This document shows positions 16,782 to 25,630 of a DNA stretch of 64,000 bases, piece after piece. The notes beneath the pieces are model-generated. The model saw only the letters and a list, made by a program, of their open reading frames with translations. It was not told the origin of the DNA and did not search any database. The first letter of the stretch is position 1. Each line of letters begins with the position of its first letter. This DNA comes from Dehalococcoidia bacterium (GTDB lineage: Bacteria; Chloroflexota; Dehalococcoidia; GIF9; AB-539-J10), in the NCBI GenBank assembly GCA_030612025.1, contig JAUWOR010000003.1, positions 1-64,000 on the forward strand, read 5' to 3'. The translations under genes and the position numbers were made by a program.

Positions 16782-16853
16782 GGCAGCGTAGCTCAGCGGT
16801 AGAGCAGAGGACTCATAAGCCTTTGGTCGCTGGTTCAAATCCAGCCGCTGCCA
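16782..16853 (+). tRNA. tRNA-Met(CAU), non-initiator (Ile2 not excluded); CCA not encoded
   Basis: GGCAGCG/CGCTGCC acceptor stem, TAGCTCAGCGGTAGAGC D-arm, CTCATAA loop, GGTTCAAATCC T-arm; G1-C72 pair. Confidence 0.93.
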
Positions 16854-16920
16854 CTTTTATACTTGCGCCACAGATTTTACGCGGAGGGCAGCGACTACCC
16901 CTCTTAAGAGGAGAAGCGGA

Positions 16921-17364
16921 TTGGCAATAGAAATACATTCTGTGACAAAAGGCAAGCGCTCTGAACTTCTTATGATGGCTTTACTACTTGAAAACGGATT
17001 CAGTGTGTTTCAAGCCTTGGCTGACATAAAAGGCGTTGATTGCGGGGTGGTAGGCAGAGACAACCACTTCTACCCTATACAGATAAAGAGCAGAGCTGAG
17101 TTTACCCTAGGAGACTTAGTGGAGGTTCGTCACTTTCAGAGTGATATGTTTATCATCATCTACGATGTGAAAACCCGAAATTATTGGGTAATACCTGCGG
17201 ATGAATACAAAAGTATGTCATCTCAACGAGTTCTGGAAAACGGGAAAGTGGGCTACCGCCTTACGCTGACTAAGAAAAACGAGAAACGGTTGGAAAACTA
17301 CAAAGGAGAAAAGGGCATACAGGTTCTCAAAAGCAAGGTATACTCACAAGTCAGCCAGCCTTGA
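16921..17364 (+). CDS. PD-(D/E)XK-type nuclease-like protein
   Basis: GKRSE...GVDC...PIQIKSR (D...QxK catalytic pattern); GAGGAG RBS. Confidence 0.65.
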   Translation: MAIEIHSVTKGKRSELLMMALLLENGFSVFQALADIKGVDCGVVGRDNHFYPIQIKSRAEFTLGDLVEVRHFQSDMFIIIYDVKTRNYWVIPADEYKSMSSQRVLENGKVGYRLTLTKKNEKRLENYKGEKGIQVLKSKVYSQVSQP

Positions 17365-17455
17365 CACTGTCAGACGCCACGCATTCTCCCCAGAGCCAAG
17401 TAAATCACCTTCCGCAGAGCCTGCTAAGCAGTTTAATAGTAAGTGGTAATTCCCT

Positions 17456-17494
17456 AGCCTTTGGTCACTGGTTCAAATCCAGTCGCTACCACTT
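17456..17494 (+). repeat. Degenerate copy of tRNA-Met 3' end (att-like site 1)
   Basis: AGCCTTTGGTCACTGGTTCAAATCCAGTCGCTACCACTT, three mismatches to 16818-16856. Confidence 0.9.
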
Positions 17495-17564
17495 ATTCTA
17501 ATTTAACAATGCCATTTAGACTACTTGTTTCATAGATAAATCAAATATACCCTGACGGCTTAGA

Positions 17565-18113
17565 TCATCCGTAGGAAAGCCATTCCTCTTTATCGCTAAG
17601 GATATCGTAAACGCCTGTAGCGATCCCAGCAAGGGAATAGTCGATTCTATTTATTAGCTCTGGTAACTGTTTAAGATAGATGGCAGCAAAGTCTATTTCA
17701 ATAGGATTTCCATCTCTATCTACGGGATATCGAAAGGTTTGCGAATTCGGGTCTAGTTCTCCTAGGATATTTATGTAACTTCCCAAATTATCATATAGAT
17801 CTTCAAACTCCCTCCTTTGTTCCTCAGTAAGATTAGGTTCAATATTCGTATCCATTGCTTGCACGATACTCCTACAGTCTTGCCATAGTCGATTAATATC
17901 ATGCCCGAGTGGGAATCTCCTTCTTTCGCCTAAATACCTTCTACCGTTTATAATTATCTCTTTCAACTGCAATTCGATATAGTGCCTATATAGAAACATT
18001 ACTGGATAGACAAGAACATTTTGTCTTCCCTTCTCAAGGGCATATCGTAGTAGTATGTCGCCTGCTTCTTTATATCCAATTATGTGCTCTCCCCAATTTA
18101 TCGGTGACATCAC
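17565..18113 (-). CDS. HEPN-like hypothetical protein
   Basis: FLYRHYIELQLK...GHDI...DPNSQTFRYP pattern resembles HEPN-fold proteins. Confidence 0.55.
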   Translation of the reverse strand: MMSPINWGEHIIGYKEAGDILLRYALEKGRQNVLVYPVMFLYRHYIELQLKEIIINGRRYLGERRRFPLGHDINRLWQDCRSIVQAMDTNIEPNLTEEQRREFEDLYDNLGSYINILGELDPNSQTFRYPVDRDGNPIEIDFAAIYLKQLPELINRIDYSLAGIATGVYDILSDKEEWLSYG

Positions 18114-18182
18114 TCACCTACTTTAATAATTAAACTTAACTTATAGTATTGTCATACTTCAAACATCTACGTACTATGAATT

Positions 18183-18740
18183 TCACCCTTCCAGTAAGAA
18201 ACCTACTTGTCGCAATGCCTTTAGTGTGACGATAACAGGATCATCTATATAGGTGTTAGATTTAGAAGCTTCAATTAAGTGCCTCATGACCGTTTTTAAG
18301 TCATATACTTTAACCTGAACTTCGTTCAAGTACTGAATGATTGAATCCTCATCTGATTTATTAAACTTCCCAACAAAAAGGCAGAATTGTATCTGTCCAG
18401 ATGAGTATCCATATTTCTTTTTTACATCTTCAACTATTGCTTTACGTATTTCAGGCTCATTGAATATTTTATACCGATCGAAGTATGTCTTTTTACTGGC
18501 ATCTGCTATCCCTTTAAAACCCTGTCGATTTACACCACTAGAGCCAAAGAAAGACTTAACAGAACCTAACAATAATGAATTAGATTTTGCTCCAGCGATA
18601 TCGACTTCATAGCCGTGTGTTTGATACTCTGGATATTTAGCCTTTTTTGTTCTTATTCTTACAGGGAATTTTACATTGGTTGTCACGATATAACCCTGAG
18701 ATTCAAGGTACACTTTTACAATATGCTCAAAAGCTTCCAT
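18183..18740 (-). CDS. Restriction-endonuclease-fold (PD-(D/E)XK) hypothetical protein
   Basis: FEHIVKVYLESQGY...EVDIAG...GSVKS. Confidence 0.6.
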   Translation of the reverse strand: MEAFEHIVKVYLESQGYIVTTNVKFPVRIRTKKAKYPEYQTHGYEVDIAGAKSNSLLLGSVKSFFGSSGVNRQGFKGIADASKKTYFDRYKIFNEPEIRKAIVEDVKKKYGYSSGQIQFCLFVGKFNKSDEDSIIQYLNEVQVKVYDLKTVMRHLIEASKSNTYIDDPVIVTLKALRQVGFLLEG

Positions 18741-18975
18741 AACTTCACTCCGCTATTAATTTATTGACTCTCTATAGATCTTAACCACTCAGTAGTAACT
18801 TCACATACTTACCTTGCCACATTATGTGGATTTTACTCTTGCGTATTCACACAATCAATGGACACAGCGTCTTGACCTTAGTCAGATCGACTACTATCGT
18901 AGTATGACTATGATTGAGAAACTGGAAAGGATGAGTTATTAATGAATGTCGCTATTAAATATCTAGTTAAGGCTG

Positions 18976-19023
18976 GGACTCATAAGCCTTTGGTCGCTGG
19001 TTCAAATCCAGCCGCTGCCACTT
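18976..19023 (+). repeat. Perfect 48-bp copy of tRNA-Met 3' half (att-like site 2)
   Basis: Identical to 16809-16856: GGACTCATAAGCC...GCCGCTGCCACTT. Confidence 0.95.
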
Positions 19024-19130
19024 CTTGTTCTAAGGTTGTCATCGTAGCAAGCTCAAATATGAAATCACCTCTAAGATATTGACATGGCCTTGTGAACTTC
19101 TTGCGTGGATCGACAAAAATCCCTTCAAGC

Positions 19131-19186
19131 CCAGAATTATCTCTCGGTGTGGTCCAGTCCATCCAGAATGTCGGTGAGAAATTTCC
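19131..19186 (+). repeat. Bipartite intergenic repeat, copy 1
   Basis: CCAGAATTATC-29 nt-TCGGTGAGAAATTTCC. Confidence 0.7.
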
Positions 19187-24380: not shown

Positions 24381-24405
24381 TCTACCTCCTTATTTGCTTC
24401 CTTTT

Positions 24406-24786
24406 TTATGTTTTATCTCGGAAATAATATTTTAGTGGTTTCTCAGCTACGTGAAAAGATAGAATCCGAACCATCCGGCCATGCTGATCGCCAGATAGCT
24501 TGAGTTTAATATATATTTCTTTTCCCCGAATAATTTTTCCGAATATCCAAACATCGCCTCTAATTCTTGGGTCTTTAGTTGGGCCGGAGCAGTAATCCAA
24601 AACCGATAAGGACAGAATCTCCTTTTTGACATCTTCCCGAGTCATCTCCAGCTCAGTCAAGGTATTAACATTCTTTTTACGTGCAGTTGAAAAACTCCAC
24701 CTCCACCTATCCTGATAGCTGTTTTGTATCGCATACTTTGCCTCCAATAGAAAGCTTCTAACTGCTGATTGCTTGCCTGCACACAA
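24406..24786 (-). CDS. MqsR-like toxin
   Basis: RKKN..TL..L, DYCSGP, VWIFGK...EIYIKLK...LSFH; upstream of an MqsA-like gene. Confidence 0.8.
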   Translation of the reverse strand: MCAGKQSAVRSFLLEAKYAIQNSYQDRWRWSFSTARKKNVNTLTELEMTREDVKKEILSLSVLDYCSGPTKDPRIRGDVWIFGKIIRGKEIYIKLKLSGDQHGRMVRILSFHVAEKPLKYYFRDKT

Positions 24787-24878
24787 TATACAATACCTCC
24801 TGATTCCAAATTAGGGCTCATTTTCTTTACCTCCTTTTCATTTATGCTTTGCTAGGCGATGGTCAACACATATTAGAT

Positions 24879-24907
24879 ATTTTATATCATATGATAAACT
24901 AAGTCAA
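24879..24907 (-). promoter_or_regulatory. TA operon promoter with palindromic operator
   Basis: Minus strand TTGACT-17 nt-TAAAAT; perfect palindrome TATCATATGATA (24885-24896) in the spacer. Confidence 0.55.
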
Positions 24908-25091
24908 GACATTGGTGGCAGATTTATCATTTGATAAGGACTTCTTGGCCAGCCCAGCTATACGCGGTTGCCCAAAAAGCCTTATGGACCACTTTCTGGG
25001 GCTTCCCTGCATCTGTGTAACACGGACGAGAAGTTCCCTCACCTCTGTGGCGGGTGTAAATCTAGCTGTTATGTTTCTGAAGGGAGTTATT

Positions 25092-25130
25092 AGCCTTTGG
25101 TCGTTGGTTCAAGTCCAATCCTTACTGCCA
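25092..25130 (+). repeat. Degenerate copy of tRNA-Met 3' end (att-like site 3)
   Basis: AGCCTTTGGTCGTTGGTTCAAGTCCAATCCTTACTGCCA. Confidence 0.75.
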
Positions 25131-25140
25131 AGAATTAAGA

Positions 25141-25175
25141 AGGCAGGCTGACAAATCTAGCCTGCCCTTTTGTTT
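25141..25175 (+). terminator. Intrinsic terminator after att-like site 3
   Basis: GGCAGGCT-loop-AGCCTGCC followed by CTTTTGTTT. Confidence 0.7.
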
Positions 25176-25292
25176 GTGCCACGCGAACTTTAGGATTCCA
25201 TCTGGATGAAAGCAAGGTGATAAGGCAAAATTTACCTCCAGCAAGCTGCCTAAGATTCCACGCCTACCTCAGTCTCTGCTGGTGGAGCAAAT

Positions 25293-25496
25293 CTAACTGC
25301 GCTCACCTCCACGTCCCTCTGTTACTAAAGGAATGAGGAAAACCACACAGGCAATGAGGAAGATAATACTGCCTACGAGGTTCAGCATGTTATGAGCTTC
25401 CACACTAGAAGCTATGAAGAAACCGGCGCACACTAGGAAAAGAGTCCAGCCTAAGATCCCGAACTTCCTTTCCCGATTACTTTGGTCATTAGACAT
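25293..25496 (-). CDS. Small two-TM membrane protein
   Basis: GGAGG RBS, GWTLFLVCAGFFIASS...GSIIFLIACVVFLIP. Confidence 0.7.
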   Translation of the reverse strand: MSNDQSNRERKFGILGWTLFLVCAGFFIASSVEAHNMLNLVGSIIFLIACVVFLIPLVTEGRGGERS

Positions 25497-25587
25497 TTCA
25501 CTACCTCCCTGAAAGCTGGCAATTGGGGGAATAGTATCACATCCTAAATCCGTGATTTAAGCATGGTAGCTCAACATCAGCCATCCG

Positions 25588-25630
25588 ATAATCCCTTGGT
25601 CGCTGGTTGAAATCCAGCCGTTGCTACTTT
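25588..25630 (+). repeat. Degenerate copy of tRNA-Met 3' half (att-like site 4)
   Basis: ATAATCCCTTGGTCGCTGGTTGAAATCCAGCCGTTGCTACTTT versus ATAAGCCTTTGGTCGCTGGTTCAAATCCAGCCGCTGCCACTTT. Confidence 0.85.

Follow-up and report, generated by a model that had tools for sequence, protein, structure and literature searches.

The 3' half of a transfer RNA gene recurs several times downstream of the gene itself in the stretch of DNA analyzed here (the window: 64,000 nt of contig JAUWOR010000003.1 from a Dehalococcoidia bacterium), and the small gene-bearing segments between these copies, in an array region that spans 16782-25630 and is followed by fpg, raise the question of how they came to stand there. 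The initial annotation had offered two answers, an integron-like array that captures anti-phage genes or a set of eroded tandem islands. These are not exclusive, because the integrase stumps and decayed attachment (att) sites of the locus speak of erosion and its single-gene modules, shared across genera, speak of travel in small units. The reading favored here, to which we give a probability of roughly 0.65, is a tRNA hot spot where integrase-less, att-flanked modules resembling cis-mobilizable elements (CIMEs) have accreted in tandem and are now frozen.

The assembly containing the window comprises 1.40 Mb in 19 contigs and is 95.6% complete, and the genomes compared with it are metagenome-assembled genomes. 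Relatives are labeled G, fetched or metagenome loci L, and metagenome runs X. All metagenome runs were aligned as contigs, not as reads, and stretches lacking contig cover in X5, X6 (a groundwater run) and X8 (a marine-sediment run) carry no weight as evidence of absence. The array stretch is matched in cold-seep metagenomes, which are its probable origin, and portions of it are also matched in sediment and groundwater runs from other studies. In the relatives, att copies were located with an nhmmer profile of the att copies.

The intact gene (16782-16854, + strand; ARAGORN, with 70.4 bits against the Rfam tRNA model) would correspond to attL, that is, the primary integration site. By ARAGORN and Rfam it is the single intact tRNA(CAT) of the array, and Rfam detects no other RNA or structured family between 16000 and 27000. 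Its name, tRNA-Met, comes from the CAT anticodon alone, so that it may be an elongator Met or an Ile2 (lysidine) tRNA. The genome has three tRNA-CAT genes, the one on contig C5 being the initiator, and the variable region and T-arm of the anchor tRNA presumably look like those of bacterial tRNA-Ile2 (lysidine).

A repeat search finds the 3' 48 nt of this tRNA in five direct copies, including the gene itself at 16809-16856, which confirms the four downstream copies reported earlier. All are on the + strand: copy 1 (17447/17456-17494) is 81% identical to the tRNA tail and has a variant T-stem; copy 2 (18976-19023) is identical at 48/48 positions; copy 3 (25083-25130) is 71% identical and is followed by a terminator-like hairpin at 25142-25166; and copy 4 (25582/25588-25629), 79% identical, would be the outermost attR, contiguous with the fpg flank. 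The start-to-start spacing of 638, 1529, 6107 and 499 nt agrees with the approximate 0.6, 1.5, 6.1 and 0.5 kb first given. A 29-nt core, with up to three mismatches, has four matches in the window, all on the + strand, and none in 100 dinucleotide-preserving shuffles (0/100). Moreover, a 35-nt core is confined to these sites across the 1.40-Mb assembly, and its reversed control is absent. The variant T-stem of att copy 1 is a genuine tRNA allele of relative G021. These results support the view that a tRNA integration site is present here, with the tail repeats as its att copies. As a separate observation, the T-arm of att copy 3 resembles the initiator tRNA type.

The copies delimit three small modules. 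Module 1 (638 bp, 16857-17494, + strand) consists of a 147-aa open reading frame (ORF; 16921-17364) and att copy 1. Module 2 (1529 bp, 17495-19023, - strand) holds a 182-aa ORF (17565-18113), a 185-aa ORF (18183-18740) and att copy 2, and its GC content is 35-39%, compared with 44-49% in the flanks. Module 4 (499 bp, 25131-25629, - strand) carries a 67-aa membrane ORF (25293-25496) and att copy 4, and the same ORF-att-fpg layout is present in G003 (contig C158) at 93% nucleotide identity. The one or two genes per segment ascribed to the first two modules are therefore as described. Pfam, NCBIfam and PHROGs detect no recombinase or transfer genes in modules 1, 2 and 4, no conjugative element was seen at the locus, and Pfam finds no replication domain in 17 ORFs of the window and 115 ORFs of the relatives' loci. 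The earlier remark that such modules are too small to be autonomous is supported.

When the relatives are compared, the entire 8.8-kb interval from the tRNA to fpg proves variable, and its breakpoints lie at the att copies. An empty site (tRNA-fpg-o279-o469 with no insert) is present in G007 and G020, which belong to other genera of the family, and an X8 contig joins 16852 to 25626, that is, the tRNA to the sequence after att copy 4. The interval between the tRNA and the gene of a PrsW-family protease differs from genome to genome within the window's genus, across all four genomes compared. In the window it contains modules 1 and 2; in G002 and L102, an integrase stump and four ORFs (2.9 kb), then module 2; in G003, a stump, a distant homologue of the 182-aa protein, a 180-aa ORF and a 394-aa ORF; in G004, a stump and about 5 kb that include a PDC-S11 candidate; and in G001, a DUF5661 gene, then HEC-01A/B and an EVE-restriction-type gene. 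The window aligns with G002, L102 and L103 from 17456 onward, a position within att copy 1; the alignment covers module 2 and att copy 2 and continues into PrsW with 92-95% nucleotide identity, and the sequence to the left of 17456 is unrelated. Similarly, G003 has an upstream sequence followed by att and PrsW where G002 and L102 have that sequence followed by att, module 2, att and PrsW, and the last ~230 nt of the upstream sequence are common to both arrangements. An X6 contig of 1542 nt reaches from 17465 to 19007, differing from the window at 13 positions and by a single 1-base gap.

Of 40 relatives from across the order, at least 14 contain partial 3' copies of the anchor tRNA, and short intervals predominate in the GTDB relatives, 11 of 17 att-to-att intervals being no longer than 1.6 kb. 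Of eight loci with att arrays that were checked, six have one intact tRNA and two have none. Within what was searched, then, the relatives do not share identical content, their breakpoints do not lie away from the att copies, and no derivation of the segments from large intact islands was found. In G001 (contig C20, L037), a duplication of at least 1.0 kb, 98% identical, occupies 1707-2730 and 5977-7000 in oriented coordinates, with a period of 4270 nt; it starts inside an att copy and takes in a DUF5661 gene of 87 aa as well as another degenerate att, and its second copy reaches the contig end, so this could be a tandem element copy or an assembly effect.

A further comparison concerns module 1 and G009, a member of another genus. 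Module 1 is 93.9% identical there over 573 nt, although identity is 74.5% in the fpg flank, where homology begins at 25598, and 81.3% in a deaminase-kinase pair. In G009, module 1 sits behind the first att copy and not behind the tRNA; the att on its left bears the T-arm of G009 itself, and on its right lies an att remnant with the variant bases of window att copy 1. This pattern is the one that site-specific integration predicts, in which attL is of the host type, attR is of the element type and the crossover falls close to the 3' acceptor end of the tRNA, and the sequences argue for a recent horizontal transfer of module 1 as a 0.6-kb unit. They also bear on the view that the segments are inert scars, in which old large islands were eroded at random and all differences arose through RecA-type recombination or deletion and replacement by flanking homology. 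Replacement by flanking homology is unlikely because module 1 is 94% identical across genera and the flanks are 74-81% identical, and random erosion does not readily place the module at another array position, with an att of host type on its left and one of element type on its right. Nor was a larger integrase-bearing island with module 1 or module 2 found in a scan of GTDB genomes and in 12 metagenome loci of the 185-aa family. The GTDB scan gave one relative of the 147-aa protein, and it too lies in a small module.

Small modules recur beyond this case. In three metagenome contigs, L104-L106, a homologue of the 185-aa protein with 63-64% identity forms a single-gene module of about 0.66 kb between att copies, and in L105 and L106 the next unit is a membrane-protein module of about 0.9 kb with its att copy, followed in L105 by fpg. 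The remoter homologues (62% identity or less; L107, L109-L113) have no att near them, so the 185-aa family as such is not tied to the site. In G013, intervals of about 0.5 kb contain only ORFs of at most 87 aa lacking a Pfam match, a point in favor of erosion into scars.

As reported at first, the window has no intact integrase, only a stump of 74 aa, and a search of the whole assembly extends this: besides the stump it holds one XerD-like and one XerC-like recombinase and no others, and the serine-recombinase domains PF00239 and PF07508 have no matches in it. The relatives, however, do have integrases at the site. Family A is represented in G040 by a 316-aa integrase with a SAM-like and a catalytic domain, located after an att copy. 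In G189 (81% identical) the complete gene lies 117 nt behind the tRNA, and in G171 a copy with 79% identity lies 1.4 kb from an att. Other members are broken: G017 is missing the N-terminal domain, G176, G180 and G185 have stop codons, and in G003, G004, G018 and L102 all that is left is a stretch of the final ~56 codons immediately after the tRNA. In the window's genus, no family A member was found at E <= 1e-40 (0/4). The stump in the window is 35% identical to family A and represents a second family, B, whose stumps adjoin the kinase gene in G009, G046 and G018 and whose full-length relatives, open frames of 343-380 aa, stand beside the initiator tRNA-fMet in G188 (L156), G088 (L159) and G078 (L166). 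On this comparison of sequences, two tyrosine-integrase families appear to have used the locus. An SSV-type partition of the integrase, in which att lies within the gene, was considered on account of the C-terminal stumps that adjoin the tRNA in G003, G004 and G018, and rejected: the intact G040 gene (L072) has no att in it and the G189 gene is complete.

The XerC-like protein of the assembly (contig C8) has counterparts in 19 of 40 relatives with 53-98% identity (73-98% without a copy that has a stop codon). Its action as a helper in trans is unlikely because the array-bearing genomes G038-G040 yielded no match to it. Its gene (G000:C8:63912-64847) is 3.7 kb from a second tRNA-CAT (C8:60109-60183), and in G004, G001, G019 and G030 about 0.1-0.3 kb separate the orthologue from a weak match to this second tRNA-CAT. 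This may be another, older association of a tRNA with a recombinase, or there may be an insertion between them here.

We infer from the above that the 3' end of tRNA(CAT) would be a long-lived attachment site for integrative elements in a family-level group of Dehalococcoidia, and that these elements would be moved by Xer-like tyrosine integrases. With each integration the tRNA would be restored, and the insert already present would be displaced downstream, separated from the newcomer by a 40-48-nt copy of the tail. Repeated accretion along with integrase loss would then lead to tandem att-flanked modules, most of them with one or two genes, and recombination between att copies would allow modules to be gained, lost, re-ordered or exported when an integrase-bearing element is in the cell. 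Because no such integrase is left in this genome, the array would be frozen here.

The 6.1-kb third segment is a composite and not a single cassette. The genes first listed for it, namely a nuclease-like gene, PrsW, an MqsR/MqsA-SocA pair and an integrase stump, are all present, but a deaminase-kinase pair and a second family of direct repeats, R2, had been overlooked. The gene of the PrsW-family intramembrane protease (19248-20030, - strand; PF13367, 2.1e-9) lies between att copy 2 with R2 copy a and R2 copy b, and its presence varies: G018 has no PrsW between att and the deaminase, G013 has it in an att-bounded module, and in G024 it directly adjoins the tRNA. The R2 copies (a, 19131-19198; b, 20150-20218; c, 21446-21512; all on the + strand) are about 56-70 nt long, occur nowhere else in the genome, and flank PrsW and a 374-aa gene. 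R2 was also considered as a degenerate copy of the tRNA tail and rejected, the best ungapped match by eye being about 10/25, which is the level of chance.

The 374-aa ORF (20317-21441, + strand) forms a 1.3-kb insertion between R2 copies b and c. G003 and G004 have no such gene and a single R2 copy in its place; in G003 this lone copy is a hybrid, with a left part like copy b and a right part like copy c, as expected after a conservative insertion. Contigs of X5, X6 and X8 show the corresponding joint without the gene, from 20203-20207 to 21511-21532, and G001 has different genes at this position. The protein has 12 homologues (the three with a source name are all from Chloroflexota or Dehalococcoidia), with E133 and K135 of an E-x-K motif invariant. 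Its structural model has a confidence (pLDDT) of 78.5; Foldseek gave no match with it, and the best VIA-align match is CdiA-CT with Z 8.4, a value inside the background range of the tool, followed by HamA, XisH and restriction enzymes. It is a candidate nuclease of the PD-(D/E)XK fold, with a borderline structural match.

Next in the segment are a dCMP-deaminase gene (21661-22143) and an AAA_18 kinase gene (22148-22690), both assigned by Pfam on the - strand. Of 202 genomes of the order, 148 carry the kinase as a single copy, as do 66 of the 78 high-quality genomes, and its identity drops from 95% within the genus to about 57-65% in the remotest genera. In 12 further kinase loci the deaminase adjoins in 11, but only 3 have a tail copy of the anchor tRNA within the 9-12 kb fetched, so that 9 of the 12 place the pair elsewhere. 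A search for the kinase found none in G007 and G020, the genomes with an empty site, or in G012, in which the contig stops just after the tRNA. In the window, G009, G046 and G018 the hot spot contains the pair next to an integrase stump, and in G024 it contains the pair with no stump detected. Between G009 and the window the kinase is 87% identical (81% for G013), yet fpg is only 61% identical (70% for G013); a transfer of the deaminase-kinase block is hinted at because the G009 kinase is closer than that of G013 and its fpg more distant. An identification as a split anti-phage dCTP deaminase was rejected: with NF041025, whose cut-off is 400 bits, the deaminase scores 66 bits and the kinase 35, ComEB gives a better match, scores with the anti-phage dCTP deaminase models are low in general, and the pair is order-wide, single-copy and outside the hot spot in 9 of the 12 further loci. 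The pair is thus semi-core and not the usual cargo.

The C-terminal tyrosine-integrase stump of family B (22776-23000, + strand; 74 aa) matches PF00589 with 6.2e-7 over profile positions 125-169 of 172. It is followed on the - strand, between 23013 and 24786, by a 92-aa ORF, a gene for an antitoxin-type protein with an MqsA-like zinc-ribbon/helix-turn-helix region and a SocA/Panacea domain (23385-24380), and an MqsR-like ORF (24406-24786). The MqsA/Panacea protein scores 100 bits with TIGR03830 (cut-off 61.8) and 73 bits with PF13274 (3.7e-20; cut-off 25.7), whereas the MqsR-like ORF reaches 20.2 bits with MqsR_toxin (PF15723), below the cut-off of 26.2. The block 22985-25597, which comprises the 92-aa ORF, these two genes, att copy 3 and the 67-aa ORF, is missing in G009, where the stump is directly followed by att and fpg. 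In G018, a 37-39% identical MqsA/MqsR-like pair stands at the same place in the opposite orientation. Two side observations concern transcription: the best promoter-like site (11/12; 22753-22782, - strand) is just upstream of the kinase start, in the start of the stump ORF, and a 10/12 promoter-like site lies upstream of the MqsR-like ORF.

Regarding the cargo of the small modules, the labels given initially stand in part. For the 185-aa protein, the AlphaFold2 model (pLDDT 93) supports a restriction-endonuclease-like fold: the top Foldseek matches are nearly all PD-(D/E)XK nucleases, with TM scores of only 0.3-0.44, and include AF1548, the R2 endonuclease domain, SduA, XisH, NucS, Can2/Card1 and MspJI. 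The protein has 365 homologues, none of which has a Pfam domain, and its residues D47 and K62 are invariant. On the contrary, the PD-(D/E)XK-like label of the 147-aa protein is below threshold (PF11645, PDDEXK_5, E = 0.0044, under the Pfam cut-off; the PHROGs match is phrog_5018, 8.6e-7, a PHROG of unknown function). The HEPN-like label of the 182-aa protein is weak: 7 of 28 family members match HEPN at E 0.0094 or worse, and 26% of the members have it in one Atlas cluster, so that HEPN is possible. Sequence searches against PDB with the 147-, 182-, 185- and 374-aa proteins gave no match. An anti-phage role of the window cargo is suggested by the predicted folds.

In the relatives' arrays, PADLOC matches 12 of 63 scanned ORFs at 1e-5 or better. 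The candidates are HEC-01A/B, PDC-S11 (5.5e-151), PDC-S35 with a TIR domain (3.5e-91) and the methyl-directed type II enzyme mREase_II (2.7e-48), and further ones are PDC-S48, a PLD/DrmC-like protein and a PD-Lambda-3-like HEPN protein. Because the hot spot carries such candidates in relatives, the locus is a defense-type island.

Several points weigh against frozen tandem accretion at the tRNA. First, erosion is under way, to judge from the integrase stumps and from the decay of att copies 1, 3 and 4 to 71-81% identity, and homologous recombination between the 40-48-nt repeats could also yield deletions and swaps with att breakpoints. Second, no excision product was seen in the contigs; the back-joints of X8 (25095 to 18993 and 20171 to 19170) could equally reflect another module order in another strain, and the junction of module 1, att copy 1 and module 2 is supported solely by the window's own assembly. 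Third, the R2-flanked insertions need a second mechanism beyond the tRNA att, and the deaminase-kinase pair is order-wide and single-copy, therefore part of the array is relocated or resident chromosome and not cargo. Finally, PADLOC has no match for the 147-, 182-, 185- and 374-aa proteins of the window.

Another reading goes a step further than accretion: a tRNA-anchored cassette system of Dehalococcoidia that would act in the manner of an integron but not be one. A Xer-like integrase, present beside the tRNA in some cells, would recombine the 40-48-nt tail sites and so excise and insert single-gene modules of 0.5-1.5 kb, for the most part nucleases and other defense genes, moving them from one array position to another and across genera. 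We consider this tentative, a possibility that falls short of even odds.

A dedicated integron-like capture system would be stricter still, with single-gene tRNA-tail cassettes, tiny circles that a tyrosine integrase acting in trans from beside the tRNA in some cells would re-insert singly, and selection for a store of defense genes. Its appeal comes from the recurrence of single-gene modules in which gene and att are no more than 23-85 nt apart, from the 185-aa family, which keeps this layout at 63% identity, from the passage of module 1 between genera with its own att variant, and from the dominance of small intervals noted above; moreover, the integrases of G189 and G017 directly beside the tRNA give a topology like that of intI-attI. 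However, no IntI-type integrase is present and the repeats are not attC sites. Both integrase families have their best scores with Xer-type models and lie far under the integron-integrase cut-off (with TIGR02249, whose cut-off is 265 bits, the stump scores 20 bits and the G040 integrase 58.4). Gene orientations along the array (+, -, -, -, +, -, -, +, -) are mixed, and therefore a common promoter is excluded. The integrases sit inside modules with no fixed platform position, as in G040, most copies of the integrase in the family are broken, and no circle was observed; circular cassette contigs, as a candidate, fail because terminal overlaps are present in 0/6 short metagenome contigs. The strict integron-like reading of the initial annotation is not borne out, and dedicated capture as a whole appears unlikely.

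The inert-scar view is the least probable of the three: it can draw on the stumps of two integrase families, the decayed att copies, an integrase-free genome and a perfect 48-nt repeat able to support homologous deletion, but the placement of module 1 in G009 leaves it improbable.

Tandem accretion of att-flanked modules has precedents with which the locus can be compared. Among the closest are the CIMEs and the tandem accretion at the sites of integrative and conjugative (ICE) and integrative and mobilizable (IME) elements (ICESt1 model; Pavlovic 2004, cited in PMC3146451; PMC5704250). As with CIMEs, the modules are att-flanked, devoid of recombination and transfer genes, and in tandem at one site, and they would move only with or through an integrase-bearing neighbor. 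They differ in that the site is the 3' end of tRNA(CAT), the host belongs to Dehalococcoidia, the units are mostly of 0.5-1.5 kb with one gene, and there is no known conjugative partner.

In the same bacterial class, the ssrA islands of Dehalococcoides are arranged in tandem and bounded by repeats of the ssrA 3' end (McMurdie et al. 2011, PMC3146451). According to this source they have a 20-bp repeat, the large serine recombinase DsiB, a six-gene integration module and rdhA cargo, and 15 islands without the integration module were proposed to be cis-mobilizable. Both systems show tandem islands downstream of a small RNA gene with 3'-end direct repeats. In contrast, here the anchor is tRNA(CAT), the repeats are 40-48 nt long, the integrases are Xer-like tyrosine integrases with no serine recombinase, the modules are far smaller and the cargo is of the nuclease and toxin-antitoxin type.

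For the tycheposon islands of Prochlorococcus, which lie at tRNA genes with a partial tRNA separating neighbors, fragmented integrases and scattered partial tRNAs are described as older integrations, and the integration and replication modules take about 3-5 kb and the cargo up to 10 kb or more (Hackl et al., 10.1101/2020.12.28.424599). Integration at a tRNA gene, a streamlined genome, partial-tRNA separators and integrase fragments are common to both, whereas by Pfam neither the window nor the relatives' arrays contain replication genes.

The resemblance to integrons, and to clusters of attC sites lacking integron integrases (CALINs), consists in a row of small, mostly single-gene units that end in recombination sites, with no nearby recombinase and with content that varies between close relatives. 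The difference is that IntI, an attI/Pc platform and attC hairpins are all absent here, the sites being direct copies of the tRNA 3' half; a classification as an integron thus fails on the integrase model score, the tRNA-tail repeats and the mixed orientations. Pipolins, in turn, have been described as defense platforms at tRNA genes (PMC11551731). The present locus is like such defense islands in that a tRNA gene collects, in relatives, restriction-type nucleases, TIR proteins, ATPase-nuclease pairs and toxin-antitoxin modules. It has no PolB or other hallmark genes, and the small modules of the window, proposed earlier to be defense-like, have no matching PADLOC model.

As for the surroundings, the flanks are syntenic in relatives, with three secreted-protein paralogues on the left and fpg and two further genes on the right. 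The gene fpg (26115-26948, - strand; formamidopyrimidine-DNA glycosylase by Pfam) forms the conserved right flank. Upstream of the tRNA, three tandem genes for signal-peptide proteins occupy 14884-16640 in a left flank conserved in the genus; two of the proteins (191 and 186 aa) are 44% identical paralogues and give rise to the 74%-identical DNA repeats D2 and D4. At 25941-26029, a palindromic unit of about 30 nt forms an inverted pair. Across the genome, 38 occurrences of pieces of this unit were counted on 11 contigs, and all four metagenome runs show very high contig depth and many loose ends there. It looks like a dispersed repeat of the repetitive extragenic palindrome or miniature inverted-repeat type (REP/MITE-like), placed between att copy 4 and fpg.

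The general phenomenon is already known from the ssrA islands, the tycheposon islands and the CIMEs of streptococcal ICEs. The novelty lies in the site, the Xer-like integrase families, the defense-type cargo, the R2 family and the prevalence of single-gene modules of 0.5-1.5 kb throughout an order of uncultured bacteria, and no description of tRNA-Met cassette arrays in Dehalococcoidia was found in the open literature searched.

Dehalococcoidia from sediments and aquifers have small genomes. To our knowledge, the exchange of accessory and defense genes among them is poorly known. The locus described here offers a concrete route, in which one tRNA gene would serve as a docking site across the order and att-bounded modules of one or two genes would be stacked, lost and shared between genera. 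If the small modules do not recombine singly, the locus would be a clear yet ordinary case of island accretion and decay. If they do, an integron-like capture of genes would have arisen from an ordinary tRNA att and a Xer-like integrase, and the locus would also be useful for mining new anti-phage genes in uncultured bacteria.

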